Notes: generated from the sequence alone by a model not told the origin. Counted from the first letter of the stretch, positions 4,113 through 61,259 are shown. The stretch is DNA of 64,000 nucleotides from Kiloniellaceae bacterium (GCA_021776055.1 JAJFGP010000088.1:4642-68641), one strand, 5' to 3'. Numbers and translations: made by a program.

Positions 4113-5281
4113 AGGGAAAAATAACCCTCCAGGACGGCCCGATAGACGGCGTGCAGATTTTGCAGATCGGTCGCGGGCACCTGCTCGTCCACCTTGTGTG
4201 CCGTGGCATTCAACAGACCTAACTCGGCGACCGGGCAATAGTCCTTGATGAAACGCGCATCCGAGGTGCCGCCGGTGGTGCCCAGTTCCGGCCGTCGGCC
4301 CGTCACGCGCTCGGCCGCGTCGCAAACAAGGTCGCTCAGCGGGCCTGGCGGGCAGAGGAACGATTCGCCGGAGACACGCACATTCAGTTCATAGGCGGCC
4401 CCGCGTGACGTGTCGATCGCCGCGTTCAAGCGTTGGCGCAGCCAATCTTCAAGCGAAGCGCCGCTGTGCCGGTCGTTGAAGCGTATGTTGAAGGCGGCCG
4501 TGGCGCGGGCGGGAATAACATTGCCGACACCGTTGCCCACATCGATGCTGGTCAGCTGCAGGCTGGTTGGCGAAAAATGCTCGGTCCCCTCGTCCAGCGT
4601 TTCCGAGACGATGGCATCGAGCATCGCCACTAGGTGATGCACCGGGTTATCCGCCAGTTGCGGATAGGCCGTATGCCCTTGCGTCCCCGTGACGGTCAGG
4701 GCGCCGGTCATACTGCCGCGGCGGCCGATCTTGACCATATCGCCCAACACCTCGGCGCTGGTTGGTTCGCCCACCAGGCAGGCATCGGGAATCTCGCCAT
4801 TCGCCTTGAGCCACTCGAGCATTTTGCGCGTGCCGTTCACGGCCTCCGCCTCTTCATCGCCGGTGATCAGCAAACCGATGGAGCCGTCCAGGCGGCCGCC
4901 GTGTTGCGCTAGAACATCCGCGGCGGCGGCCACGAAACAAGCAATCGCGCCTTTCATGTCAACGGCGCCGCGGCCGATGACATGGCCATCGACCAACTCG
5001 GCGGCAAAGGGATCGACGCTCCACGCCGCCGCATCGCCGACCGGCACCACGTCCGTGTGCCCGGCGAAACCAAACAAGCGGCCACCTTTACCGATGCGGG
5101 CGTACAGGTTGTCCACATCCGAGTAACCGGCTTCCGAGAACGGAAGCCGTTGGCAGGTAAATCCCAAATCGCCAAGCACCTCGGCGAGCAAGGTCAGGGC
5201 CCCGCCCTCTGCCGGCGTGACGCTAGGACAGCGAATTAGTTTCTGGGTCAGCTCGACGGGATCGAGCTTCGCAAGGGTCAT
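4109..5281 (-). CDS. dapE: succinyl-diaminopimelate desuccinylase
   Basis: M20 peptidase pattern: MTLAKLDPVELTQKLIRCPSVTPAEGGAL...GHTDVVPVGD...ITGDEE. ATG at 5281 is preferred over the TTG at 5287; adjacent to dapD. Confidence 0.9.
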   Translation of the reverse strand: MTLAKLDPVELTQKLIRCPSVTPAEGGALTLLAEVLGDLGFTCQRLPFSEAGYSDVDNLYARIGKGGRLFGFAGHTDVVPVGDAAAWSVDPFAAELVDGHVIGRGAVDMKGAIACFVAAAADVLAQHGGRLDGSIGLLITGDEEAEAVNGTRKMLEWLKANGEIPDACLVGEPTSAEVLGDMVKIGRRGSMTGALTVTGTQGHTAYPQLADNPVHHLVAMLDAIVSETLDEGTEHFSPTSLQLTSIDVGNGVGNVIPARATAAFNIRFNDRHSGASLEDWLRQRLNAAIDTSRGAAYELNVRVSGESFLCPPGPLSDLVCDAAERVTGRRPELGTTGGTSDARFIKDYCPVAELGLLNATAHKVDEQVPATDLQNLHAVYRAVLEGYFSL

Positions 5282-5379
5282 AGCCAACGCTCCATGGTTC
5301 TCATATCCGAGGTATCATAGGCATCGCCGCTGTGATGCCCAAGCGGCATGGCACCGCACATGGCGCCACGGGGGATCGA

Positions 5380-8163: not shown

Positions 8164-9428
8164 TGGTCCGCTCCGCAAACAAAAAGGAGGCGGCCGCCGA
8201 GTCCAACCTTAGCTATGAGGACGCGAAGCGTCTGGCGCAGAATTCTGATATGTTGGTGCGCGCCCAGCTTGCCGGGCGCGACGATATCCGGCCCGAGATT
8301 CTCTACTACCTGGCGGAAGACGTCTCGCCCGAGGTGCGTTGCCAGATTGCCGCCAACCGGCACACGCCCGGTCAGGCGGACCTGTTGCTGGCGCGCGATG
8401 CGGACGAGGCGGTTCGCCGCCAGTTGGCACACAAGATCGCGCTGCTCATGCCCGATCTCAGTCCCGACCAGCTGCGCCAGGCGCACGAACATGTGGTCGA
8501 GGTCTTGGAGGTCTTGGCGCAAGACCAGGCAACCCGCGTGCGCCAGATCCTCTCCGATACGCTCAAGGACCTGGCCTCCGCCCCGCCCGGCGTCATTCAG
8601 CGCCTGGCCCGCGATGCCGAGGAGGTGGTCGCGTGCCCAGTGCTCGAATTCTCACCGCTGCTGAGCGATGAGGACCTCATTGAAATCATCAATGGTGGCG
8701 AGCCCGCTCCTGGTAAGCTGCGGGCCGTCTCGCGTCGCCATGGCGTCGGCGAGCAGGTGGCTGACGCTATCGTTGCGACCGAAGAGCAAAGTGCTATTTC
8801 CGAGTTGCTGGCGAACAGCAGCGCGCAGATTCGCGAGGAAACGTTGAACGGCCTGGTGGATGCGGCCCTCGACGTGACGGCCTGGCACGAGCCGTTGGTC
8901 AAGCGGCCAAGCCTGCCCAAGGCGGCGATGTTAAGGCTTGCAGGATTCGTCGCCGGATCGCTCCTGGAGTTGTTGCAAGCGCGCAAGGACCTGGACAAGA
9001 AAACGGCGCGTGCTGTCGCCAAGGAAGTGGAGCGGCGCCTGAAGGATGGCGGCGGTGCCGCCGAAAAGAAAGCCGAACCGCCCGAGGCGCGGGCCAAGCG
9101 CCTGCATGACGCGGGTGGCCTGGAAGACGACGTTCTGGCCCGTGCCATGAACAGCGGCGACCGGGACCTGGTCCGTCATGGACTGGCGGTGCGCGCGGAA
9201 TTACCGGTCGGCCTGGTAGATCACATTCTGGCGGCGCGCAGCGCCAAGGGCGTAACGGCGCTAGCCTGGAAAGCCGGTTGCGCCATGCGCTTCGCCAGCC
9301 AGTTGCAGCTGCGCATGGGGGGTATCGCCCCGTCGCAGGTACTCAACGCCCGCGCCGGGACCGACTATCCCCTAACACCCGACGAAATGAACTGGCAGAT
9401 CGAATTTTTTCAAAGCCTCGCCGGCTAG
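8163..9428 (+). CDS. DUF2336-like HEAT/ARM-repeat protein
   Basis: LSYEDAKRLAQNSD..RPEILYYLAEDVSPEVRCQIAANRHTPGQADLLLARDADEAVRRQLA matches my recollection of the alphaproteobacterial DUF2336 family. Its ATG overlaps the cyclase TGA by 1 nt. Confidence 0.7.
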   Translation: MVRSANKKEAAAESNLSYEDAKRLAQNSDMLVRAQLAGRDDIRPEILYYLAEDVSPEVRCQIAANRHTPGQADLLLARDADEAVRRQLAHKIALLMPDLSPDQLRQAHEHVVEVLEVLAQDQATRVRQILSDTLKDLASAPPGVIQRLARDAEEVVACPVLEFSPLLSDEDLIEIINGGEPAPGKLRAVSRRHGVGEQVADAIVATEEQSAISELLANSSAQIREETLNGLVDAALDVTAWHEPLVKRPSLPKAAMLRLAGFVAGSLLELLQARKDLDKKTARAVAKEVERRLKDGGGAAEKKAEPPEARAKRLHDAGGLEDDVLARAMNSGDRDLVRHGLAVRAELPVGLVDHILAARSAKGVTALAWKAGCAMRFASQLQLRMGGIAPSQVLNARAGTDYPLTPDEMNWQIEFFQSLAG

Positions 9429-9448
9429 AGCAGGCTCTAGCGGGGGCG

Positions 9449-10357
9449 TCAGCCGCGTCGGACGCGGGTGCCGATGCCGCGGTCGGTAAAGATTTCCAGT
9501 AGTAGCGAATGCGGCATCCGTCCATCCAGGATGACCGCCGCCTCGACCCCGTTTTCCACCGCGCTCACGCACGTCTCCAGCTTCGGGATCATGCCGCCTG
9601 AAACGGTACCGTCCTTACGCAGGGCGTGGATCTGTTCCACGGTCAACTCCGGGACCAACTCACCCTCTTTGTCGAGGACGCCGGTTACATCGGTAAGCAG
9701 CAGCAAGCGCGCCGCGCCGAGGGCCGCGGCAACTGCTCCGGCCACCGTATCGGCGTTTATGTTGTAGGTCTCGCCCTCGGCACCGACACCGATCGGGGCG
9801 ATGACCGGTATCATGCCGGACTGTTTCAGGGCGACCAGGGGGCTCGGATCGATCGTCTCGGGCTCGCCGACGAAACCCAGGTCCAGGACCCGCTCGATGT
9901 TCGAATTCTCGTCCCGCTGCGTCCGGCTCAATCGCTTGGCGCGGATCAGGTTGCCGTCCTTGCCGGACATGCCGATGGCGGTGCCGCCGGCGGCGTTGAT
10001 GGCGCTGACGATCTGCTTGTTGATGGTGCCCGAGAGGACCATCTCGACCACCTCGACGGTGGCGGCATCGGTAACTCGCAGGCCGTCGATGAATTCGCTC
10101 TTGATCTTAAGCCGTTCCAGCATCTGGCCGATCTGCGGACCGCCGCCATGCACAACGACCGGGTGAATGCCGACCTGCTTCATCAACGCGATATCGCTGG
10201 CGAACAAGCCGGCCAACTCCGCATCGCCCATGGCGCTGCCACCGTACTTGATGACGATGGTCCGGCCGGCATAGCGGCGCATGAACGGCAGCGCCTCGGT
10301 GATCGTCCGGGCGGCGTGCAGCCATTGCTTGGTATCGGTGAAGTTCCGTTGCGTCAT
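9449..10357 (-). CDS. argB: acetylglutamate kinase
   Basis: [24 protein letters not shown]...[10 protein letters not shown]. Confidence 0.95.
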
Positions 10358-24281: not shown

Positions 24282-24357
24282 GCGCCCGTAGCTCAATGGA
24301 TAGAGCGCCTGACTACGGATCAGGAGGTTGGGAGTTCGAGTCTTCCCGGGCGCGCCA
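24282..24357 (+). tRNA. tRNA-Arg (anticodon ACG)
   Basis: Hand-folded cloverleaf, 76 nt with encoded CCA: gcgcccg/cgggcgc acceptor, anticodon loop cuACGga, T-loop ttcgagt. Confidence 0.93.
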
Positions 24358-44368: not shown

Positions 44369-44442
44369 GCGGGTGTAGCTCAATGGTAGAGCTTTTGCTT
44401 CCCAAGCAAATGACGAGGGTTCGATTCCCTTCACCCGCTCCA
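44369..44442 (+). tRNA. tRNA-Gly (anticodon CCC)
   Basis: Hand-folded cloverleaf, 74 nt: gcgggtg/cacccgc acceptor, anticodon loop uuCCCaa, T-loop ttcgatt, encoded CCA. Confidence 0.93.
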
Positions 44443-47609: not shown

Positions 47610-49289
<1,680 letters not shown>

Positions 49290-50321: not shown

Positions 50322-50726
50322 CTAAAGCTTGGCGTAGCGGGCGCGGGCGCCACGCTCGATGGCGGCGGATTCCAGCCGGCCGACATTGAGCCGGTAGCGT
50401 ATAAGCTCCAGCACACGCAGCTCCTCCTGGCTGGCTTCGCCGTCGGCGGCGGCGACATCGCAGGAGAGTGCATAGGCGGTTTCATGCAGGTGCTTCGGTA
50501 AACTGCCGGCGATCAACTCCAGGGTTTTTTCGAGGCCATCGTCTCCGCCCAGCGATTTGGCGCAATCCTGCGCCGTCGTCGTCAGCTTGGATGCGGCAAA
50601 GTCGCTGAACACCGGAAGATGTTTAACGATGTCGCCAATGGTCTGCAGTTCGCTATCGGTCATGTCGCTGTCCGAGGCGGAGACCAGGACCATCGTATAG
50701 ATCAAGGCGGACTGGGGATCGATCAT
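50322..50726 (-). CDS. TerB-like (tellurite resistance TerB family) protein
   Basis: LIYTMVLVSASDSDMTDSELQTIGDIV...AYALSCDVAAADGEASQEELRVLELIRYRL. Confidence 0.65.
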   Translation of the reverse strand: MIDPQSALIYTMVLVSASDSDMTDSELQTIGDIVKHLPVFSDFAASKLTTTAQDCAKSLGGDDGLEKTLELIAGSLPKHLHETAYALSCDVAAADGEASQEELRVLELIRYRLNVGRLESAAIERGARARYAKL

Positions 50727-50883: not shown

Positions 50884-51822
50884 ATGGGGGCCATTGTCAC
50901 CGTCATACTGCCGGTCTTCGGGATCATGCTTGTTGGGTATCTAGCGGGCCGCTTCCGGCTGCTCGGCGATGCCAGCAGCGAGGCCCTCAACGGCTTCGTC
51001 TACTACATTTCACTGCCCGCGCTCTTTTTCGTTTCTCTTGCCCAGGTTCCGGTTGGCGAGGTCTTCAATGGCCCGTTTTTGGCGGCCTTCGGTGGCGGGC
51101 TTCTGGGTACCTTCGGTGTTGCTCTGCTGGTCGGTGTCTTCATCTTTCCCAACCGACTGGCGGCGCTTGGCCTGCACGGCCTATGCGCCGTCTTTTCCAA
51201 CACCGGCTATTTGGGCATTCCACTGCTGCTCATTACCTTCGGCGAGATCGGCAAGCTGCCCGGTATCATCAGCACGGTCATCATGGGAACCGTGGTTATG
51301 GGGCTGGGCATCGTCCTGATCGAGACCGATCTGAGCCAGGGGCGCGGTCCGTTGAAGATTCTCGCCAGCGTTGGCAAGGGCGTGGCCAAGTCGCCGCTTA
51401 TCCTCTCGGCCGGCGCGGGTCTGCTCGTCTCCGCGCTCGGTGTGCCGTTGCCGGGGCCGTTGGCCACCTTCAGCGATATCCTCGGCGCCGCCGCGTCGCC
51501 CTGCGCGCTGTTTGCCATCGGCTTGTTCTTGGCCGGGCAGTCGGTGACCACGGGGCTTGTCGAGATCAGTTGGCTGGTGACGCTAAAGCTGATCCTGCAG
51601 CCGGCGATCACCTGGTGGCTGGCCTTCGGCGTCATGTCCATGGACCCAACCTGGGCGGCGGCGGCGGTGGTGCAGGCGGCGCTGCCGACCGGCGCCCTGG
51701 TCTTCGTCTTGGCTCAGCAGTACGGCATCTTCGTGCACCGAGCGACGGCGACCATCATGGTCTCGACCGTCCTATCCGTTATTACGCTCTCCCTGCTCTT
51801 TGCCTTTCTCGGTTTGGGCTAG
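50884..51822 (+). CDS. AEC (auxin efflux carrier) family transporter
   Basis: MGAIVTVILPVFGIMLVGYLAGRFRLL...NGFVYYISLPALFF; 10 TM helices. Confidence 0.8.
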   Translation: MGAIVTVILPVFGIMLVGYLAGRFRLLGDASSEALNGFVYYISLPALFFVSLAQVPVGEVFNGPFLAAFGGGLLGTFGVALLVGVFIFPNRLAALGLHGLCAVFSNTGYLGIPLLLITFGEIGKLPGIISTVIMGTVVMGLGIVLIETDLSQGRGPLKILASVGKGVAKSPLILSAGAGLLVSALGVPLPGPLATFSDILGAAASPCALFAIGLFLAGQSVTTGLVEISWLVTLKLILQPAITWWLAFGVMSMDPTWAAAAVVQAALPTGALVFVLAQQYGIFVHRATATIMVSTVLSVITLSLLFAFLGLG

Positions 51823-51862: not shown

Positions 51863-53746
51863 CTATGCGCGTGCGGCGATGCGCGGCCGGCCGCGCACCG
51901 GTCCCGATTCAGGCTCGTCGAACAGGTCGGCAAGCTGTTCCATCACCGCGCCGCCAAGCTGCTCGGCGTCGATGATGGTCACGGCGCGGCGGTAGTAGCG
52001 GGTGACGTCGTGGCCGATGCCGATGGCCATGAGCTCGACCGGCGAGCGGGTCTCTATATGGTTGATGACCTCGCGCAGGTGACGTTCCAGGTAGTTGCCC
52101 GGGTTGACCGAGAGGGTCGAATCGTCGACCGGCGCGCCGTCGGAGATGACCATTAGAATGCGCCGCTGTTCCGGCCGGCCAAGCAGGCGGTTGTACGCCC
52201 AGAGCAGAGCCTCGCCGTCGATGTTCTCCTTGAGGATGCCCTCGCGCAGCATCAGGCCCAGCGCCTTGCGGGCGCGCCGCCACGGGGCATCCGCCGACTT
52301 GTAGATAATATGGCGTAGATCGTTGAGGCGGCCGGGATTGCCGGGCTTGCCGGTGGCGATCCAGCGCTCGCGGGCCTGGCCGCCCTTCCACATGCGGGTG
52401 GTGAAGCCGAGAATCTCGACCTTGACGCCGCACCGCTCCAGGGTGCGCGCCAGAATATCGGCGCTTAGCGCCGCGACGGTGATGGGCCGGCCACGCATGG
52501 AGCCGGAGTTGTCGATGAGCAGGCTCACCACGGTGTCGCGGAATTGCGTCTCGCGTTCGCGCTTAAAGCTCAAGGAATGCGTCGGGTTGGCGACGATGCG
52601 GGCCAGTCGCGCCGTATCGAGGATGCCTTCCTCCAGGTTGAAATCCCAGTCGCGGGTCTGCTTGGCCAACAGCCGCCGCTGCAAGCGGTTGGCCAGGCGC
52701 GCGGTGACGCCCTGTAGGTTTGTGAGCTGCTGATCGAGCATCTGACGCAGGCGGTCAAGCTCGTCGGCATCGCACAGGTCCGCGGCTTCGACCGTCTCAT
52801 CGAAATCCAGGGTGAAGGCCTGGTAAGCATCTTCGTCGCGGGCATTGCGTCGATCGGCGAAGGGCGGCCGGCCGGGGCGCCCCGGCTCGTCATCGGCGGC
52901 ACCGTGCATCATCTCGCCGTCGGACTCGGAATCTTGCTGCTCGCTGCCTTCCGCCTCGCTGGCGTCGCCTTGTTCGCCCTCCAGGCTGGACTCGGCGTCC
53001 TCGGCATCGCGTTCACCGGATTCGCCGCGGGTCTGCGAGTTGTTTTCCTCGGCGTTATCGCCCTCGTTCTGCTCTTCATCCTCGTTGGCCTCGTCCGTCT
53101 CGGGGCCAAGATCGACGTCGAGATGATCGAGCAAGCGGCGGACGGTCTCGGCGAAGCGGCCCTGGTCCGCCGCCTGTTCGCGCAGGGACGCCAGGTCCTT
53201 CAGGATTTGTGCATCCAGGCTCGGCCGCCATAGATCGAGCATTTTTCGGGCCGCTGGTGGTGGCGGCATGCCGGTGATCGCCTCGCGCGCCATGACTTTG
53301 ATAACCTCGGCCAACGGCACCTCATCCTGGCTTACGGCGCGAGCATAGCCGTGGCTGCGGCAGTGCTCCTCCAGGACGGCATCCAGATTCGTGGCCACGC
53401 CGGCCATCCGCCGAATCCCTAAGGATTCGCAGCGAGTCTGTTCGATGCCGTCGTAAATGGACCGCGCCAAATCGGACCCCGGCCGGCGGCGCCGGTGCAG
53501 GGCGCCGTCGTGATAGCGCAGGCGCAAGGCCACCGCATCGGCCTCGCCGCGCACCATCGCCGCATCTCCTGCTGGCAAATCGCGCGCCGGCAACGGCAGG
53601 CGCACATCGGAGCCCACCAACCCCTGGCCGGTGGGCGAGAAGCTGGCCGTAATGTCGTCGCGCTCGGCAATGGCCCGAATGGTGGCGCCGGTCGTGCGCT
53701 TGAATTCCTCAATAGGTGAATCGCCGTCCTGCATCACCGCAGCCAA
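51863..53746 (-). CDS. cobT: CobT (cobaltochelatase subunit CobT-like, vWA domain protein)
   Basis: Central poly-acidic tract ([18 protein letters not shown]...); C-terminal vWA with [17 protein letters not shown]. Confidence 0.88.
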
Positions 53747-53993
53747 GGTTATTGATCAGATTGAGTTTCTATCCAATGATATAGGCGGTCGGTGAAAGAA
53801 AGGCAAAATCCCCGAAAGAGGGGTGAAACGCGATCTGGGTGGGGAGGCGCCTCATGGTTAGGCCGCTTGCGAAGCGCCATGAACAGCAATATGTGGAATC
53901 CCCGGATTGCGCAACTGCCGGCCTGCGAATTGGCGGAGGGGGGGCTTGTGGCACCTCCGGGTCGAGGGCTGGCTGGAAGCTAGAGCAGTGGAT

Positions 53994-55814
53994 ATGAAGT
54001 TGCTTTTCCGCCGCTTCCGGCCCGTGTTCAAGAATGCACTGGGTATAGCCGTTGTGCTTTCTCTTGTTCTTGTGTTCGACCCTCTCTCGGTTGCAAGCAA
54101 CGCTAGTCGGGCATCCGTAGCGCTGTTCTACTGGCTTGTCGCTCCACGCTATCCGGCGCCGTTCGACGATCCGAGCTCCAGCTCTGTGTTCGATGACAAG
54201 ACTGGGATCGCGGTGATCATCATCAACGATGAAAGTCTTGCCAGCATTGCGCGCGAACCGACGACCGGCGCCGTGGCGTACGTTCCTAACGACAGAGAGT
54301 CGGACAAGCTTGCAGGCAACGGCGAAAGGGTAACGTGGCCACCCCCCTTTGCCATCCATGAGCTGGTAATCAACAAAATCTTCGAGTCGGCAGTGCCAAG
54401 GGCGTTGTTCATCGATTTCGGATTCTTCGACGACCGCGACAAGACCGCCACAGCTAAATTCGCCCAGACTTTGAAAAAATACGCAGTGCCAAGAAAGGAG
54501 TTTGACGAATTCCAGGCATGTGTGACCGCACTGCCTGAACTTTCAATGACGGATGCGGCAGCCTGCACGCGCTGGGCGGGCCGGGCGCCAATTTTTCTTC
54601 CTCACGCTGGCGCATCGGCGCCAAAGCATTTACAAGTCCTGCCGGCCTTGCGGGAGGCTGTTACCGCTCTCGTCTCCTCTGATTACATCGGGGAGAATTC
54701 TGACAGCTACAACCTCTACGATTTTTACGACTGCGCGACATATTCTCCTTCGGCGGCATCGGCCATGTATCTAGCGAGTGGTGTCTTGCCTGGGTTTTCG
54801 GCCGCTGATTGCGACGTGGGCAGAAAAGCTCCCCGAGTATCCGTTTTTTGGTCCGATTGGGGCGATGCCGAGCGTGGCCGCGGCAGCTTTGCCTGCCGAG
54901 CACTGCGCAAGACCTGGCTCGACCGGGTAGGGCAGATTGCTCGTTTCGCAATTTACGATAGGCCAAAAGAACTGGTCATTTCTGCTCTTTCCGCCATTGG
55001 CGTTATGCCTGTGGATGTAGATCCAGTGAGAGTCCAGTACCAAATCTGTCCCCCACACTTGACAGTTAGCGCACACGAATTCTTGGCCGACGATACAGGT
55101 TTGATGGGAGCCGTGCTGCACAATCGGTATGTCTTTTACGGCGGCAACTTTGTCATGGCTGACGATTTGATTCGACCGCCGACCCACAATGCTATTCCGG
55201 GCGTTTATGCGCATGCGATGGTGTTGGACAATCTGCTGCAGGGACAGACGAAAAATGTGGAGTCTCGTTGGTCCAATGTGCTGGCCCTTGTCCTGACCTT
55301 ATCGGCGATAGTGGTTGCTGCAATGTGCTCTGCTGTTACTTGGGCGGGTATTGAGCGTGTGGCATCGAAGGATGACGGCCATGCGGCACGCAGCGGCGCA
55401 CGATGGTCAGCCCTGCAACACCGCAGCGGCGCGGTCTCGCAGAACCGGCTGTGGAGACAGGGTGGGGATGAAATTTTGGAAAGACGGACAAGCGTGTGGT
55501 TGGAAGTCAAAGAGCTCGTGGTCCGCATGACGCCAGCGCGTTTGCCGTTGTTGGCCTCGCCCTACGACCGACTGTGTCTTTGGGTATCGGCTTCTTGGGT
55601 ATCGGCGTGGGGCAAGTCGGTGCGCCGCGGAATACACGTTCTGGGATTGACCCTTTTTGGTGTTGTCGTATGTCTGGTGACCGTTAGCGCGTTGGCGGCC
55701 ATTGGCTTCTTCTGGCTCGATCTGGCCCCCATCAATATTGTCGGCATATTTTCTTTTGTTGGGTTTCACGGATTGCTTCGCGGACTTTCGTCTCTGCTTG
55801 AAGTGCTAATTTGA
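53994..55814 (+). CDS. CHASE2 domain membrane protein without a recognisable output domain
   Basis: N-terminal TM helix; IAVIIINDESL, WPPPFAIHELVINKIF, ALFIDFGFFDDRD, YVFYGGNFVMADDLIRPPTHNAIPGVYAHAMVLDNLLQG, then several TM helices. No kinase, cyclase or GGDEF motifs follow. Confidence 0.7.
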   Translation: MKLLFRRFRPVFKNALGIAVVLSLVLVFDPLSVASNASRASVALFYWLVAPRYPAPFDDPSSSSVFDDKTGIAVIIINDESLASIAREPTTGAVAYVPNDRESDKLAGNGERVTWPPPFAIHELVINKIFESAVPRALFIDFGFFDDRDKTATAKFAQTLKKYAVPRKEFDEFQACVTALPELSMTDAAACTRWAGRAPIFLPHAGASAPKHLQVLPALREAVTALVSSDYIGENSDSYNLYDFYDCATYSPSAASAMYLASGVLPGFSAADCDVGRKAPRVSVFWSDWGDAERGRGSFACRALRKTWLDRVGQIARFAIYDRPKELVISALSAIGVMPVDVDPVRVQYQICPPHLTVSAHEFLADDTGLMGAVLHNRYVFYGGNFVMADDLIRPPTHNAIPGVYAHAMVLDNLLQGQTKNVESRWSNVLALVLTLSAIVVAAMCSAVTWAGIERVASKDDGHAARSGARWSALQHRSGAVSQNRLWRQGGDEILERRTSVWLEVKELVVRMTPARLPLLASPYDRLCLWVSASWVSAWGKSVRRGIHVLGLTLFGVVVCLVTVSALAAIGFFWLDLAPINIVGIFSFVGFHGLLRGLSSLLEVLI

Positions 55815-55941
55815 GCCGATTCTACCTTCGGTGCTAATAGGTTGCTTGATTGGGGCGCCTAATCTAACATACGGTAACACAAGAAAAAAATCGATATGCG
55901 GACCCAGTGTAGGGTCCGACATGCTGAGGAGGATAGCTGCA

Positions 55942-56307
55942 ATGCCGAGATGGATCATCGGCGCCGTTGCCGGGGTGGTTCTCGGTGGCTTGAGCGCAAT
56001 GATCGTGGGGCAGGCTGCGGCTGAGCCCACACAAGTCACAAAGATCAGGGGTAAAGCCCTGGTTGTTTACAAAGAAGCGACTGGCGCCCCCACCAAACGG
56101 ATACCGTCCGCAGATATCGGTACACCGTTTGCCATCAAGAGCGGCCCAACGAATGGCCGATATCAGGTGGAGATCAACGGGGCCACATGGTGGATTCCCA
56201 AGGCGCAAGCGGTCACTGACGAGAAGATTGCGGGCCCAGCCGTGAGCTGCCAGTCGCTAACAAAGAGCTACGCCTCATCGCGCGGGTTCGCGGACTGCAA
56301 GGAATGA
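55942..56307 (+). CDS. secreted small protein with an SH3b-like pattern
   Basis: gaggagg SD 9 nt upstream of ATG 55942 (alternative start 55921). Signal MPRWIIGAVAGVVLGGLSAMIVGQAAA/EP. KIRGKALVVYKEATG...GRYQVEINGATWWIPKAQAV; two C-terminal Cys. Confidence 0.5.
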   Translation: MPRWIIGAVAGVVLGGLSAMIVGQAAAEPTQVTKIRGKALVVYKEATGAPTKRIPSADIGTPFAIKSGPTNGRYQVEINGATWWIPKAQAVTDEKIAGPAVSCQSLTKSYASSRGFADCKE

Positions 56308-57965
56308 TCGGGGGGTGGCGGAGACCGGCCACCGGGTCGGTCCTGGCCCTTGCGCTGGCCGTGGCCGCGGCATCACCGGCTACGGCGGGATTTCTCGATT
56401 CCGTTAACCCGTTCGCTGATACGAAGGACGAGTTCGAAGGCAAGTTCGTCGAGACCCTCGATCCGGGTCCTTGGCCGTCGCCGGCGGAGCGTTTTGATCT
56501 GTCTGCGGGCGGCGGCGGTGTCGCGCTGAAAAGTCGGCGTGGCGAGGAAGATTACGAATCTTCCAAGGACGATGAAAAGGTCGCCGAAGAAGCCGAGGAA
56601 CCGGAGCCAATTCGTGTGCCCAATGGGCTGACCTCCCTGCGCATGGCCGAGGATAGTGTCGCCTATGTGCCGGCGCTGGCGGCGTATATCAATCGGATTG
56701 GGGCGCGTGTTCTGGCCGGGGCGCCGATAACCGGTGCCCCGGTGAAATTTTATGTGACCGCGAACGAGGACTTCGGCGCCGCCAAGGCGTTTCCCGATGG
56801 GGCGGTGGGCATACCCGTCGGCCTGTTGCGCGCGGTGGATAGCGAGGACGAGCTGGCGTTCGTGTTGGGCCACGAGGCCGGGCATGTGCTGCTGGGCCAC
56901 CACGACCTGGATTGGATCAAATCCTTCAACGGCAAACTCGTCTCGGCCGCCGAGATCACCTTGGCCATGGGTGTCACGGCCGGCCAGAAACTTGGCCGCA
57001 ACGATCTGGCCCAAGGGGCGGGCAAGGTCGCTCTCATCGCCCAGGCGTTCTGGTTCGTGTCCGACAAGGGGCTGTTCCCCTCGTTCACCCGCGAGCAAGA
57101 GGACGAGGCCGATCTTATCGGTCTCGATCTGATGATTCGCGCCGGGTACAATCCGGATGGCGGATTTAGTGCCCTCAATCAGCTTGAGGCTTGGGAAAAA
57201 GCTGTGGCCGACCGGCCGAGCCCGCTGGCGCAGAAGCGCGCGGCCCTGGAACGCGAGGCCAACGAGTCCATGCAGCAGGGCGACGTTGCGGGTGCCGTAG
57301 GGGGGTTCTTCGAGAGCCTTGCTCTGGCCGGCAAAGGCTTGGTCGACGACGTATCCGTTACGCACCGCAGCGCGACGGAACGGTACGAATCACTGCTCGA
57401 CTATTTCCTGCGCGAGTATGTCGAGCTGGAATCGGGCGATCTGCGGTACGCGGAAATCAAGGCGGCGCGGGAGCGGCCGGAAACGGTTGCCCTTTTTAAC
57501 AGCTATGAAAACGCCCGCGCGGCCATACGGAAGGCCAACTCGGGCGAGTTGGGCGAGGCGGAGGGCTTTGCCAAGAAAGCGGTGGCCGGGTCGTTCTCCA
57601 ACGATGCCTTGGCCCGGTACGCCTTTGCCGCGACGCGGATGAAACAGGGCCGCACGGACAAGGCGATGCAGAACCTGGAGATTGCGAAGACAAGTCCGCA
57701 AGCCTCGCTGATCGTCTATCAGAAGTTGGCCGAGCTACAGTGGGTTTCGGGCAAGCGGCAGGATTCGGTTGTGCTGTTGGAATCGGCGCTCGACGATTTC
57801 GATGAGCCGCCGGAGCTGTACGCGGATATCGTCTATCGCTATCACGCCCTGGGCGACCAGAAGAAGGCGGATCAGTTGGCGCTGAAATGCAAGCTTAGCA
57901 ACCGTGCCGCTGGTGAGCTTTGTCTCAAGGCCGCCAAGGGTGAGATGCCGACGATCGGCGGTTAG
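56304..57965 (+). CDS. secreted M48 family zinc metallopeptidase with C-terminal TPR-like repeats
   Basis: Signal peptide; FVLGHEAGHVLLGHH (HExxH) and REQEDEADLIGLDLMIRAGYNP; helical repeat C-terminus; ATGA overlap with the upstream gene. Confidence 0.8.
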   Translation: MIGGWRRPATGSVLALALAVAAASPATAGFLDSVNPFADTKDEFEGKFVETLDPGPWPSPAERFDLSAGGGGVALKSRRGEEDYESSKDDEKVAEEAEEPEPIRVPNGLTSLRMAEDSVAYVPALAAYINRIGARVLAGAPITGAPVKFYVTANEDFGAAKAFPDGAVGIPVGLLRAVDSEDELAFVLGHEAGHVLLGHHDLDWIKSFNGKLVSAAEITLAMGVTAGQKLGRNDLAQGAGKVALIAQAFWFVSDKGLFPSFTREQEDEADLIGLDLMIRAGYNPDGGFSALNQLEAWEKAVADRPSPLAQKRAALEREANESMQQGDVAGAVGGFFESLALAGKGLVDDVSVTHRSATERYESLLDYFLREYVELESGDLRYAEIKAARERPETVALFNSYENARAAIRKANSGELGEAEGFAKKAVAGSFSNDALARYAFAATRMKQGRTDKAMQNLEIAKTSPQASLIVYQKLAELQWVSGKRQDSVVLLESALDDFDEPPELYADIVYRYHALGDQKKADQLALKCKLSNRAAGELCLKAAKGEMPTIGG

Positions 57966-57979
57966 CCCGTCCCTCTCAA

Positions 57980-58978
57980 CTAGACCAGGGTGGCCTTGAC
58001 GCTGCTTTCAGGTAGTTCGGTACCGAAGCAGCGCTGGTAGTACTCGGCGACCACGGGGCGTTCCAACTCGTCGCACTTGTTTATGAACGTCACGCGGAAG
58101 GCGAAGCCGAGGTCGTCGAAGATTCGCGCGTTTTCCGCCCAGGTGATGACCGTCCGCGGGCTCATGACCGTGGAGATATCGCCGTTGACGAAACCGCTGC
58201 GGGTCAGATCCGCCAGGGCCACCATGGCGGCCAGCCGCTCGCGCCCTTCCTTGTTGTCGTAGTCGGGGCATTTGGCGAGAACGATCTTCTCCTCCTCCTC
58301 GTGCGGCAGATAGTTGAGGGTGGCAACGATGCTCCAACGGTCCATCTGACCCTGGTTCAACTGTTGCGTACCGTGATAGAGGCCGGTGGTATCGCCTAGG
58401 CCGATGGTGTTGGTGGTGGCGAACAGGCGGAAGGCCGGATGCGGCTGGACTACCCGGTTCTGATCGAGCAGGGTCAGCTTACCTTCGACCTCGAGAACCC
58501 GCTGGATGACGAACATCACGTCCGGCCGGCCGGCGTCGTACTCGTCGAAGACCAGGGCCATCGGGTGCTGCAACGACCAGGGCAGCAGACCTTCGCGGAA
58601 TTCGGTGACCTGCTTGCCGTCCTTGAGCACGATCGCGTCCTTGCCCACCAGATCGATACGGCTGATGTGGCTGTCCAGATTGATGCGCAGGCACGGCCAG
58701 TTGAGGCGAGCCGAAACCTGCTCGATGTGGGTCGACTTGCCGGTGCCGTGATAGCCCTGGATCATCACCCGGCGGTTGTAGGCGAAGCCGGCGAGGATGC
58801 TGAGCGTGGTGTCGCGGTCGAAGCGGTACACCTCGTCCAGGGTGGGCACGTGCTCGTTGGGCTGGCTGAAGGCGGGGACCTGCATATCGCAGTCGATGCC
58901 GAAGGTCTGGCGCACCGATACCGTGATATCGGGTCCCTCCATCGGAAAATCGCCGCCGTTGACTTGAGTTGCAGACAT
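57980..58978 (-). CDS. cobS: CobS (cobaltochelatase subunit CobS-like, AAA+ MoxR-type ATPase)
   Basis: [32 protein letters not shown] (Walker A); [13 protein letters not shown] (Walker B). Confidence 0.9.
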
Positions 58979-59057: not shown

Positions 59058-59624
59058 TCAAGCAAAGCTCATCTTAAGCGCGGCGTACGCTTGATTGATG
59101 GTTTTGAGCCGTTCTTCCGCCTCCGGATCGCCGCCGTTGGCATCCGGGTGCAACTTCTTGACCAGGTCTTTATAGCGGGCCTTCACGTCCTGGAAGGTCA
59201 CCGGTTCCCTCAGCTCGAAGGCGGCCAGCGCCTTTTCTTCCTCGGTACGCGGCTTCTCGGGTTTGGACGTGCTGGTACTTTCGCTTTCCCAGAAAGAGCC
59301 GAAGCCATCGTGGACCCGGTGCCCCGCGTTGAAGCTGGCGTGCTCGCCGAAGTGCCCAAGCGGCCAGCTGGGCCGTTGCCAGACCGTATCGGAGCGGCGC
59401 TGGTATTCGATCTCCGCCTCGCTCAGGCCAGCGAAATAGTCCCATGCCCGGTTGTAGGCGCGCACGTGCTCCAAGCAGAACCACACGTAGTCGCTCAGCC
59501 GGTCCCGCGCCGCCGGGGCACGGAAGGCACCCTCTTCGGCGCAGCCGGCCTGTTCGCACTGGCGTGGCGCCGGTTTCGGCTGCGCAAAGGGCTTGTTGAT
59601 CGCATCTGGTGTCGGACGTCGCAT
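59058..59624 (-). CDS. J-domain protein
   Basis: C-terminal FQDVKARYKDLVKKLHPDANGGDPEAEERLKTINQAYAALK (HPD motif); N-terminal Cys-containing region. Confidence 0.8.
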   Translation of the reverse strand: MRRPTPDAINKPFAQPKPAPRQCEQAGCAEEGAFRAPAARDRLSDYVWFCLEHVRAYNRAWDYFAGLSEAEIEYQRRSDTVWQRPSWPLGHFGEHASFNAGHRVHDGFGSFWESESTSTSKPEKPRTEEEKALAAFELREPVTFQDVKARYKDLVKKLHPDANGGDPEAEERLKTINQAYAALKMSFA

Positions 59625-59760
59625 GAGTCGAAGTATGAATACCGTGGTTTCGCAAAACAAGCCGGCCCGTGCGGGAATCGCAAGTCAGGCAGCATCGGGC
59701 ACTAGCGCCCGGCCGTCGATTGTCTCGCCTGAGCGGTTATCGGATCCCTAACGGCCAGTT

Positions 59761-60084
59761 TTAAGCATTATCGTGCTTGCCGCCGCCAAGGCAGGCGGGC
59801 GAATCGAAGGTCTGGCCACCCTGCGCTGCCCATTCATCGGCGGTATGCGTGCGCAGCGAGAGGGCATGGATGCGGGATGACAGCTCGTCGCGCAGGACCT
59901 CGTTGACCGCCTGGTGGCGGCGTACCCGCGGCATGCCGGTGAAGTGCTCCGAGACCACGATGACCTTGAAGTGGGACTCCGATCCCGGTGGCACATTGTG
60001 CATGTGACTTTCATTGACGACCTGCAGGTGGCTGGGCGCCAGCGAGGTCTGTAGCTTAGCCTCGATGTCTGCTTGTACGCTCAT
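59761..60084 (-). CDS. bolA: BolA family protein
   Basis: LQVVNESHMHNVPPGSESHFKVIVVSEHFTGMPRVRRHQAVNEVL. Confidence 0.85.
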   Translation of the reverse strand: MSVQADIEAKLQTSLAPSHLQVVNESHMHNVPPGSESHFKVIVVSEHFTGMPRVRRHQAVNEVLRDELSSRIHALSLRTHTADEWAAQGGQTFDSPACLGGGKHDNA

Positions 60085-60306: not shown

Positions 60307-60708
60307 ATGATATTCGGTAATCCTTCCAAGGGCGACGGGCTAGATCGGGATCAAGACGACGGGCAGGCTCCAAAGGGCGCCAGCACCCTGGTCAATCGGA
60401 ACGTCTTTGTCGGTGCCCGGCGCACCAGCCTGCGGCTGGAGCCGGCCATGTGGGATGCCCTGGCGGAGATCTGCCGGCGCGAGGATATGACATTGCATCA
60501 GGTCTGTGCCTTAATCGACGAGCGCCGCCGTGCCTCCAGCCTGACCGCGGCCATCCGGGTTTTCATCGTCAACTATTTCCGCTCCGCCGCGACCGAGGAA
60601 GGACATGCCAGCATCGGCCACGGTGCGCTCTATGGCGCCCGTATGCGCGCCCGGGACGCGGCGGCCGTGCGCCGCGCCGTGCGGGCGCAAGCCGGACCTC
60701 AGCTCTAA
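60307..60708 (+). CDS. ribbon-helix-helix domain protein (RHH_4-like)
   Basis: RRTSLRLEPAMWDALAEICRREDMTLHQVCALIDERRRASSLTAAIRVFIVNYF; AT-rich upstream region. Confidence 0.7.
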   Translation: MIFGNPSKGDGLDRDQDDGQAPKGASTLVNRNVFVGARRTSLRLEPAMWDALAEICRREDMTLHQVCALIDERRRASSLTAAIRVFIVNYFRSAATEEGHASIGHGALYGARMRARDAAAVRRAVRAQAGPQL

Positions 60709-61259
60709 CTCTTTGGGCCGGTGTAAAAATCCGGCCAGCGCTTCTGCACCACCTCGCCATCGCTGGCAAAGGCATGGCAGGTGTCGATCAAGGGTGGCTT
60801 GCCTAGGCGAGTGTCCTTTTCGTGCTTGTCCTTCAGGGCCGGATAGAGGGTTTGGAAGGCCACCGTGGCCATGGCACCCAGGGCCTCGACTAGATGGGTG
60901 CATCCCTCGACTCCGCCCATGCGCTCGCGCACGGCGCGGCGCCAGCCGGCGCCCATGCGCACACCGACCATCTTTTGAAAGTTAGGAGTGATCTGCGGGC
61001 AGACTGCAAACGGGCTGCCGTCAGTCACCGCCTCGATGCCATGCACGACAAAGTCGTCGTCCAGGGTCACCCGTAGCCACATGTCGTGCAACGGCTCGCC
61101 CGCCCCGATCTCGCCGCGATAGGCGTTGGGGAAGCTATAGGTTTTGACATCGGTTAGATGCCCCTCGATATCCCAAAGCCCATCGCCACGGCGGAAGCCA
61201 CGAAACTCAAGCTGCCGCGTATGCAAATGCTCGCGCGCGACCGGTGTGGAAAGAGGCAT
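60705..61259 (-). CDS. DUF2889-like protein
   Basis: HTRQLEFRGFRRGDGLWDIEGHLTDVK...HDMWLRVTLDDDFVVHGIEAVTDGSPF..CP...GCTHL. Confidence 0.65.
   Translation of the reverse strand: MPLSTPVAREHLHTRQLEFRGFRRGDGLWDIEGHLTDVKTYSFPNAYRGEIGAGEPLHDMWLRVTLDDDFVVHGIEAVTDGSPFAVCPQITPNFQKMVGVRMGAGWRRAVRERMGGVEGCTHLVEALGAMATVAFQTLYPALKDKHEKDTRLGKPPLIDTCHAFASDGEVVQKRWPDFYTGPKS

Follow-up and report, generated by a model that had tools for sequence, protein, structure and literature searches.

A CHASE2, SH3b-like and M48 protease triad between cobS and cobT carries a hypervariable allelic cassette in a clade of marine Alphaproteobacteria

Introduction

CHASE2 is among the commonest extracytoplasmic sensor domains of bacteria, and its ligands are essentially unknown. 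A Burkholderia operon encodes a CHASE2 histidine kinase ("BiofilmReg") together with an adjacent LysM-FecR periplasmic protein (PMC5192318), and the Sinorhizobium meliloti CHASE2 cyclases CyaD1, CyaD2 and CyaK respond to a protein signal that reaches them via NsrA, an outer-membrane protein (PMC13001267). Here we analyze a CHASE2 gene that lies with genes for a small secreted protein and an M48 metalloprotease (together, the triad) between cobS and cobT, within a 64,000-nucleotide (nt) stretch of DNA from a Kiloniellaceae bacterium (GCA_021776055.1, JAJFGP010000088.1:4642-68641; hereafter the window, with positions counted from its first letter). A sequence-only reading of the window had described these genes as an envelope module with a composition consistent with acquisition. 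We instead read the triad as an old three-gene periplasmic operon with recombination-swapped CHASE2/SH3b alleles that acts by controlled periplasmic proteolysis, and we give this reading a probability of about 0.55.

Like described CHASE2 receptors, the CHASE2 protein of the triad has an N-terminal transmembrane helix (TM), a periplasmic CHASE2 domain of ~390 amino acids (aa) and three further TMs; unlike them, it has no cyclase, kinase, GGDEF or other cytoplasmic domain, only a non-conserved loop. As in the Burkholderia operon, an adjacent gene encodes a periplasmic accessory protein whose fold, predicted in the case of the triad, is typical of cell-wall-binding domains (PMC5192318); however, the partner in the triad is an orphan protein with a predicted SH3b fold rather than a LysM-FecR protein, and the third gene encodes a protease rather than a response regulator. 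A CHASE2 response to protein signals through partner proteins is known for the S. meliloti cyclases (PMC13001267). The M48 protein resembles BepA (YfgC) of Escherichia coli, 3C37 of Geobacter and LoiP in its Sec signal peptide and in its HExxH motif with a downstream Glu in ExxAD, and it shares with BepA and related M48 proteins a predicted periplasmic location and probably a C-terminal alpha-helical repeat region. In contrast to BepA, it has an extra ~120-aa N-terminal region with the motif FLDSxNPFADTKDEFEGKF and an acidic linker, and it is always encoded after the CHASE2 protein and the small SH3b-fold protein, with translational coupling to the latter.

Results

A hypervariable cassette with alleles older than the genomes that carry them

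We compared the window with loci that carry the triad at the same site (identified below by L numbers); a metagenome scan with the M48 alignment gave at least 10 confirmed loci, and the allele census is small. The flanking genes of close relatives are highly similar to those of the window (87-95% nt identity for cobT of L082 and L085; 94-98% aa identity for CobS of L082 and L087). Variation is shared by the CHASE2 gene and the part of the small gene that encodes the SH3b domain, whereas the tail of the small protein and the M48 protein stay conserved. Protein identities to the window are 98% for CobS, 93% for M48, 58% for the small protein and 49% for CHASE2 in L087; 94% for CobS, 91% for CobT, 80% for M48, 50% for the small protein and 45% for CHASE2 in L082; and 98% for CobT, 46% for the small protein and 45% for CHASE2 in L085. 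Almost all of the 15 CHASE2 proteins of the clade are 30-63% identical to each other.

The left edge of the variable segment is sharp. In each of three independent comparisons, the BLAST segments end at 53847-53850, with a nucleotide identity of 87-95% before this point; binned identity falls from 93-98% to <55% between the 53760 and 53820 bins. Beyond this edge, the cassette is unalignable with L087, L082 and L085 except for a CHASE2 hallmark motif (55068-55264, ~75% identity). The right edge is graded over 56040-56400, with identity recovering gradually from 56045-56150 to 56400. Among close backgrounds, the small-protein tail (residues 94-128, numbered from an upstream ATG at 55921) is 74-89% identical, whereas the SH3b part is 41-64% identical, which fits the position of the right cassette breakpoint.

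Synonymous (dS) and nonsynonymous (dN) divergence, estimated by the Nei-Gojobori method, separates the cassette from its flanks. Between the window and L087, flank dS is 0.18-0.35, whereas CHASE2 has a dN of 0.45 and a saturated dS of ~3; between the window and L085, cobT dS is 0.20 and CHASE2 dN is 0.56. With a cassette dN above flank dS and a cassette dS at saturation, the divergence cannot be explained by relaxed constraint or positive selection over the same time span. The cassette alleles are much older than the genomes carrying them. L085 and L082 belong to the same allele class; their CHASE2 proteins are 73% identical, with a dS of 0.45 for CHASE2 and 0.40 for cobT and a dN/dS ratio (omega) of 0.37. 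Inside a class, cassette evolution is vertical and subject to purifying selection. Local hypermutation of the cassette was rejected on the same comparison, in which within-class CHASE2 dS equals flank dS. Pseudogenization of the cassette genes was rejected because all open reading frames (ORFs) are intact: every CHASE2 allele encodes 503-622 aa and retains the CHASE2 hallmark motifs as well as 32 invariant positions.

Two data sets (JGI 3300001750 and ENA ERZ27237539) each hold both the L085/L086 allele and the L087/L088/L089 allele, and independent assemblies reproduce each allele (L087 = L088 = L089, 100%; L085 = L086, 99.96%). The haplotypes of the same sample are 99.3-99.5% identical on the cobT side and unalignable in the cassette; the first ~800 nt of M48 are 88-94% identical, and the following ~5 kb, which take in the rest of M48, cobS, bolA and the J-domain gene, are identical apart from a single mismatch. 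Near-clonal flanks around an unalignable cassette are the pattern expected after segment replacement by homologous recombination, and the alignments indicate that old alleles have been exchanged in this way between near-identical genomes. Exchange takes place via the conserved flanks, which are the cobT 5' region to the left of the cassette and, to its right, the 3' end of the small gene together with M48. As in a balanced or recombining allelic cassette, divergence at synonymous sites far exceeds that of the flanks, the segment is sharply bounded, and several alleles occur on one background. Signatures of a diversity-generating retroelement or an invertible segment were not found; the repeat search gave short, chance-level direct and inverted repeats, and no reverse transcriptase or recombinase ORF lies nearby.

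Two further observations concern the comparison loci themselves. Between the two haplotypes of the same sample, where L087 (2443-3243) is aligned with L092 at window ~56340-57140, divergence steps down over the 5' half of M48 from 12% to 12%, 5.5%, 5.5% and 0%; this stepwise decay points either to an imported segment with its end within M48 or to several recombination events in succession. The contigs L081 and L108, which both derive from SRR32380747, look like halves of one further haplotype, broken between CHASE2 and the small gene, with identities to the window of 89% for cobT, 54% for CHASE2, 63% for the small protein, 73% for M48 and 94% for cobS; compared with cobS, M48 has diverged unusually far here.

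Age of the insertion

A CobS scan of species-representative genomes listed at least 80 alphaproteobacterial loci (CobS identity 74-85%), and the closest of those listed are from Kiloniellaceae and Rhodospirillaceae metagenome-assembled genomes (MAGs). The bolA/J-domain/cobS/cobT neighborhood recurs in nearly all of the 80 loci listed, and cobT directly follows cobS on the same strand in 78 of the 80, the remaining two contigs ending too early. The gap between the two genes has a median of 14 nt and is ≤200 nt in 70 of these loci, and no CHASE2 or M48 relative occurs within 10 kb in any of the 80. Synteny therefore upholds the sequence-only claim that cobS and cobT, adjacent elsewhere, are separated here. 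Eight of the 78 listed loci have cobS-cobT gaps of 424-1060 nt with unrelated small ORFs, and the junction is therefore an occasional insertion site. Insertions found elsewhere include a gene for a 356-aa secreted protein in L048 (10951-12021) and two ~170-aa ORFs in L080 (10974-11970), and gaps of ~425 nt occur in L066, L067, L073 and L075 (Bradyrhizobium).

We found 17 CHASE2 homologs, all of 503-622 aa with Pfam CHASE2 as the only domain, and those with a readable context lie between cobT and cobS, followed by a gene for a ~124-aa protein and then by an M48 gene. The triad is at the same site in L081, L082 (GCA_021776215.1), L083 (GCA_021776095.1, 375-kb contig), L085-L090, L093, L094 (a TARA scaffold), L101 (616-kb contig) and L108. 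CobT identity to the window ranges from 65% to 98% across this clade and is only 65-76% in L083, L090, L094 and L101. A shared site across such a range of backgrounds means that the insertion is old and fixed in one clade; the triad was inserted long ago, directly past the cobS stop codon, and is now fixed in one marine alphaproteobacterial clade. The ORF map of the window contains no integrase or transposase near the module, and the search for repeats bounding the module gave chance-level matches only. Thus, the marks of a recently acquired island were not found: there are no mobility genes or flanking direct repeats, and relatives also carry the module.

GC composition of the cassette

GC content is 0.558 in the CHASE2 gene, 0.592 in the small gene, 0.629 in the M48 gene, 0.666 in cobT and 0.629 in the whole window. 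A dip at ~53750-56250 includes the lowest-GC 2.2-kb stretch of the window (0.554-0.561, compared to a mean of 0.630 with a standard deviation of 0.020, or ~3.5 standard deviations below). The sequence-only reading had estimated GC at ~48-55% in the CHASE2 gene versus ~62% in cobT; the dip is real, but it is shallower than estimated and does not include the M48 gene. GC content at third codon positions (GC3) is 0.61-0.74 in the CHASE2 and small genes compared to 0.75-0.90 in the M48 gene and the flanks, and this deficit occurs in every locus of the clade that was examined except the most distant, L094, where it is slight. Triads in other genomic contexts have locus-typical GC.

Because the dip recurs in the clade loci examined and the M48 gene has native GC, the dip is a standing property of the cassette and not the donor signature of a whole module. 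The proposal that composition is consistent with acquisition was not sustained: the dip marks the cassette rather than the module, GC in the M48 gene is genome-typical, and the triad is fixed clade-wide and lacks mobility genes. A plausible cause of the dip is that allele divergence blocks recombination within the cassette, such that the segment would miss GC-biased gene conversion.

The CHASE2 protein

The CHASE2 protein matches Pfam CHASE2 (PF05226) over residues 68-438 with a score of 46.4 bits (cut-off 26.3; E = 4.8e-12); the alternative NCBI start at 53946 gives a protein of 622 aa rather than 606 aa. Based on hydropathy, TM1 spans residues 15-33, the periplasmic domain ~34-428, TM2 429-447, a loop 448-551, and TM3 and TM4 552-595 (peaks at 552-570 and 577-595), which is the expected topology of an N-terminal TM, an extracytoplasmic domain and three TMs. 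The AlphaFold2 (AF2) model, with a predicted local distance difference test score (pLDDT) of 73, has helices at residues 2-28, 425-458, 523-575 and 582-605, and the protein ends ~10 aa past TM4.

No Pfam or NCBIfam domain besides CHASE2 was detected, and the last 180 aa consist of TM2, the non-conserved loop and two further TMs, in agreement with the sequence-only description of a CHASE2 protein without kinase, cyclase or GGDEF output. Among alleles, the periplasmic core is the best-conserved part of the protein (62% identity in the motif block at 351-428 and 36-45% elsewhere), and the cytoplasmic loop has 18% identity, 36% of columns shared and a length of ~10 to 100 aa. The poor conservation of this loop, together with CHASE2 as the only Pfam match, means that there is no conserved cytoplasmic transmitter. 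A fold search of the AF2 model against the PDB gave no meaningful match (best E = 0.7), and the PDB searches made here found no solved CHASE2 structure.

The small secreted protein

The small gene has two in-frame ATG codons, at 55921 (128 aa) and 55942 (121 aa). A GAGGAGG ribosome-binding site at 55928-55934, 8 nt before the second ATG, agrees with the NCBI call of 121 aa and with the N-termini of homologs, so the start is most likely 55942 and the 128-aa reading is probably too long. With numbering from 55921, the protein consists of a signal peptide, an SH3b-like beta domain (38-99) and a conserved tail with the invariant residues C110 and C126. AF2 predicted a seven-strand beta domain at residues 38-99 with pLDDT of 90-96 and a low-confidence tail. 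The best PDB matches identified by Foldseek are bacterial SH3b domains (2krs, 9ovi, 4krt and 2kyb), with probabilities of 0.94-1.0, root-mean-square deviations of ~3 Å, target TM-scores of 0.57-0.64 and E-values of only 0.006-0.1.

Neither Pfam (SH3_3, SH3_4 and the like) nor a PDB profile search returned a sequence-family match for the small protein, and a Pfam scan of 41 family members at E≤1 gave nothing significant, with one TagH_SH3-like match (E = 0.034). The sequence-only reading had called this a signal-peptide protein with an SH3b-like pattern; the signal peptide and a predicted SH3b-like fold stand, whereas membership in an SH3b sequence family does not. W91, T99, C110, R121 and C126 are invariant in 56 relatives, and the N-terminus of the mature protein, A-E-P-T, is moderately conserved. 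C110 and C126 are predicted to form a C-terminal disulfide loop.

The M48 protease

The M48 protein matches Pfam Peptidase_M48 (PF01435) with 63.3 bits (cut-off 20.3) and has both HEAGH and REQEDEAD, as anticipated when it was first described as a signal-peptide M48 protease (HEAGH ... EDEAD). H190, E191, H194 and REQEDEAD are invariant in six divergent homologs. The signal peptide is followed by the FLDSxNPFADTKDEFEGKF motif, the acidic linker, a catalytic domain (124-302) and a putative helical-repeat tail (~414-540). PDB matches are 3c37 and BepA (6ait/6sar), the BepA matches covering residues 124-297 only. The match to NCBIfam BepA (NF052400) scores 69.7 bits over the protease domain only; the protein was rejected as a BepA ortholog, as this score is far below the equivalog cut-off of 570. 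The tail has a weak match to NCBIfam PEP_TPR_lipo (residues 414-535, E = 0.0068) and no Pfam TPR match at E≤0.01, and residues 414-513 match designed PPR repeat proteins by profile, with no single stretch significant alone.

The FLDSxNPFADTKDEFEGKF motif (window 56390-56450, residues ~30-48) lies directly after the signal peptide, and the linker that follows it is variable. The motif is invariant in all M48 proteins of the clade, even at 46% overall identity; it is degenerate in L094 and absent from the L097-type protease. It may be a docking peptide.

The triad in other genomic contexts

The order CHASE2, small protein and M48, with overlapping stop and start codons, was found in at least four further unrelated contexts: adjoining the threonine synthase gene thrC (L097/L098), flanked by LysR/LigB/DoxX genes and an OmpA-family gene (L103/L104), close to cytochrome bd and VIT1 (L105/L106), and after an extracytoplasmic function (ECF) sigma/anti-sigma pair (L107). 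Co-occurrence of CHASE2 with M48 in other genomes, on which the sequence-only reading had partly staked its case, thus extends to the same order, with five or more unrelated contexts known. The triad is a conserved operon that seems not to have been described; we found no description of it in the searched literature on CHASE2 with M48 or peptidases.

In the triads from other contexts, the small proteins likewise combine a signal peptide with a beta-rich domain and a pair of C-terminal cysteines. Searching 1.84 billion representatives with a profile identified 202 family representatives at 50% clustering, nearly all of them stand-alone proteins of 105-150 aa, and a word-indexed search identified >160 small-protein clusters, many from Caulobacteraceae MAGs and all labeled hypothetical. 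The triad in L103/L104 is followed by a gene for a DUF4892-OmpA protein (8547-9542), and that in L107 is preceded by genes for an ECF sigma factor and a zf-HC2 anti-sigma factor (4265-5343). These OmpA and ECF sigma neighbors hint at a link to the envelope or to envelope stress, and there is no consistent fourth gene.

Locus layout and the cobT upstream region

The positions of all features are listed in Table 1. ORF mapping and profile hidden Markov model scans agree with the sequence-only description of three plus-strand genes between minus-strand cobS and cobT, and the noted overlap of the last two genes, which implied co-translation, is present as ATGA (aaggaATGA, 56304-56307), where the TGA of the small gene meets the ATG of the M48 gene. 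Both cobS (TIGR01650, 604.6 versus 558.55 bits) and cobT (TIGR01651, 815.4 versus 759.05 bits) score above their NCBIfam equivalog cut-offs. The M48 gene and cobS are convergent, with a gap of 14 nt.

Table 1. Features of the cobS-cobT locus, with positions in the window
Feature	Position	Strand	Basis
cobT (CobT and CobT_C/VWA), left conserved flank	51863..53746	-	NCBIfam TIGR01651; Pfam CobT, CobT_C
Conserved cobT 5' region, up to the left breakpoint of the variable cassette	53747..53848	-	Alignment of five loci of the clade
Hypervariable allelic cassette (CHASE2 promoter region, whole CHASE2 gene and small-gene 5' part)	53849..56045	none	
Output-less CHASE2 membrane protein, 606 aa	53994..55814	+	Pfam PF05226, hydropathy, AF2
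Small secreted protein, 121 aa	55942..56307	+	Ribosome-binding site, ATGA overlap, AF2, Foldseek
Periplasmic M48 metalloprotease, BepA-like architecture, 553 aa	56304..57965	+	Pfam PF01435, PDB matches
cobS (AAA+), right conserved flank	57980..58978	-	NCBIfam TIGR01650
J-domain protein	59058-59660	-	Pfam DnaJ
BolA	59761-60084	-	Pfam BolA

Based on an alignment of five loci, a stretch of ~100 nt preceding cobT (53747-53848) is conserved throughout the clade; a separate alignment showed no similarity between this region and ancestral cobS-cobT spacers. The region contains a minus-strand hairpin, CCCCTCTTTCGGGG (~53810-53823), followed by a T-run; these lie within 53794-53823, ~50-75 nt upstream of cobT. 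A CTATAT box, likewise conserved across the loci of the clade, lies between the hairpin and the cobT start. These elements could serve as an insulating terminator, as a promoter element for cobT, or as both. A scan of the region for sigma-70 promoters and terminators gave promoters not above shuffled expectation. Because co-transcription of cobS and cobT would run antisense through 4.2 kb, cobT likely has its own promoter, and the proposed uncoupling of cobT from cobS transcription is plausible.

Beyond bolA, genes for RHH_4 and DUF2889 proteins (window 60307-61259) are syntenic in all module-bearing loci (L082, L083, L087, L101 and L108), such that the conserved neighborhood reaches past bolA, the J-domain gene and cobS. 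On the cobT side, the window encodes GroEL with a GGM-repeat tail (47625-49289), a TerB-domain protein (50322-50726) and an AEC-family (Mem_trans) transporter (50884-51822). The sole Rfam matches in the whole window are two tRNA genes far from the locus (24282-24354 and 44369-44439).

Discussion

Envelope sensing or regulated proteolysis, as first proposed for this locus, is a reasonable inference from the analyses above. If the triad is an old operon acting through controlled proteolysis, the CHASE2 protein would be an envelope receptor or scaffold anchored in the membrane and, because it has no conserved cytoplasmic part, would not signal into the cell. The variable SH3b domain would be the cognate binding partner of the CHASE2 protein, a pairing that would explain their joint variation as one cassette. 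The small protein would be made in a fixed ratio with the protease via ATGA coupling, its conserved Cys-loop tail would dock on the conserved M48/helical-repeat protease, and the output would be controlled proteolysis in the periplasm. The coexistence of several deep alleles on one background points to frequency-dependent selection on the receptor/partner surface, and the selecting agent may be a phage, a toxin or another outside antagonist, a ligand, or self/non-self specificity.

Several points weigh against this reading. Co-variation of CHASE2 and SH3b is also expected from physical linkage in one swapped segment and does not prove binding. The SH3b assignment is a predicted fold with weak Foldseek E-values (0.006-0.1) and no sequence-family match, and the helical-repeat tail of the M48 protein is supported by weak sequence matches only. 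The 80 loci listed in the CobS scan leave out the nearest module-bearing genomes, and haplotype-specific contigs end where the sequences converge, such that the identical shared flank may partly be a collapsed assembly consensus. Caulobacteraceae-type triads have well-conserved small proteins; therefore, diversification is not intrinsic to the module but a feature of the ecology of the clade.

The same polymorphism also suits a different role, one that we consider possible if rather doubtful, in which the CHASE2/SH3b pair is a polymorphic determinant in inter-bacterial or phage conflict. The pair could serve a phage, a bacteriocin or a contact-dependent toxin as its receptor or entry factor, or it could be an immunity-like pair or a specificity pair for kin recognition; the M48 protease would then only process or turn over the pair, and envelope homeostasis would not be the function. 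Deep alleles that coexist in one population on near-identical backgrounds, the sharp bounds and low GC of the cassette, the many mutually divergent alleles, and a small secreted partner with a disulfide loop all fit such a role. However, the three proteins gave no match to PADLOC defense models (E≤0.01) and no toxin, nuclease or pore domain in Pfam and NCBIfam scans, the CHASE2 protein is located in the inner membrane and is not directly surface-exposed, and the Caulobacteraceae-type triad is well conserved with genome-typical GC. The wiring of the three proteins could also differ from the one that we propose. Small beta-barrel inhibitors are encoded adjoining serralysin-type metalloproteases, and the small protein could likewise inhibit or chaperone the M48 protease in the periplasm, with the CHASE2 protein sequestering it on a signal or being a substrate. 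This arrangement would fit the ATGA coupling of the small gene and the M48 gene, conserved in all contexts, and a signal-peptide beta protein with one conserved Cys pair and a moderately conserved mature N-terminus (A-E-P-T); we nevertheless find it unlikely, as the small protein has no sequence or fold match to known protease inhibitors and its top fold matches are SH3b domains.

If the CHASE2 and small genes were drifting and nearly functionless, weak selection would account for their divergence and low GC, and the higher omega in the cassette (0.14-0.37) than in the flanks (0.05-0.17), the variable length of the cytoplasmic loop and the reduced GC3 of the cassette are in line with this; yet all alleles are intact (503-622 aa, 32 invariant positions, CHASE2 hallmark motifs), the breakpoints are sharp, and within-class dS matches that of the flanks with omega <1. 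With cassette dN above flank dS and dS saturated, drift over the same time span is insufficient, and we regard this explanation as quite improbable. Slightly more improbable still is the recent arrival of the whole 4.2-kb module, with the GC dip as donor composition. Triads at the same site where CobT is only 65-76% identical (L083, L090, L094 and L101), native GC and GC3 in the M48 gene, a dip in the clade loci examined (slight in L094), within-class cassette dS equal to flank dS, and the failure of the ORF map and repeat search to reveal an integrase, transposase or flanking repeat all speak against it, despite the adjacency of cobS and cobT in 78 of the 80 other alphaproteobacterial loci listed, the GC of 0.558 in CHASE2 against a window mean of 0.629, and the unrelated small insertions at this junction in other lineages. 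That the alleles are chimeric joins in metagenome contigs is hardly credible. Most comparison loci do come from metagenomes or MAGs, and haplotype-specific contigs end where haplotypes converge, but independent assemblies and samples recovered the alleles identically (99.96-100%), the homologous ORFs are intact and identically bounded in all alleles, and the window, L083 and L101 are on contigs of 69-616 kb.

Two further known systems offer points of comparison. The hypervariable region of Staphylococcus aureus agr comprises the agrB 3' end, agrD and the agrC 5' end and defines balanced specificity groups. Four agr groups are recognized (PMC8768832). Both agr and the triad have a sharply bounded hypervariable segment in a conserved operon, spanning a membrane sensor and an adjacent secreted partner, and in both, populations contain deep allele classes side by side, with recombination exchanging them. 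However, the triad has no kinase output, its partner is a folded domain of ~90 aa rather than a processed peptide, the conserved part of this partner is the C-terminal loop, and the system is periplasmic and Gram-negative; the likeness does not cover cell-cell signaling. The second comparison is an analogy only. NlpI-Prc of E. coli is a periplasmic protease whose specificity comes from a separate partner, and the triad may be alike in having partner-supplied specificity with a protein that contains or binds helical repeats; the protease belongs to family S41 there and to M48 here, and the partners have no homology. A more specific proposal, which we put forward as speculative and doubtful, is that the triad represents a new kind of Gram-negative envelope system that uses a CHASE2 domain without a cytoplasmic transmitter, with periplasmic proteolysis by a dedicated BepA-like enzyme as the read-out, and that in this marine clade CHASE2/SH3b "specificity groups" are kept under balancing selection and swapped by recombination.

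For genome interpretation, the locus carries a caution: the local GC dip here reflects long-lived allelic diversity and not recent acquisition. It is a clean case of a sharply bounded, low-GC, recombination-swapped cassette in a housekeeping neighborhood of uncultured marine Alphaproteobacteria, and such allelic loci usually mark interfaces of bacteria with phages, toxins or kin. The triad is also a compact natural system, in which an output-less CHASE2 protein is always accompanied by a single small periplasmic protein and a single protease; in one clade, it diversifies jointly with the small protein. It thereby points to a concrete, testable candidate partner for CHASE2 and to proteolysis as a possible output other than transcription. 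If the proposal of specificity groups is true, the triad would be a periplasmic counterpart of pherotype or kin-recognition loci and would provide a first hint of the type of ligand that CHASE2 recognizes, namely a cognate folded protein.

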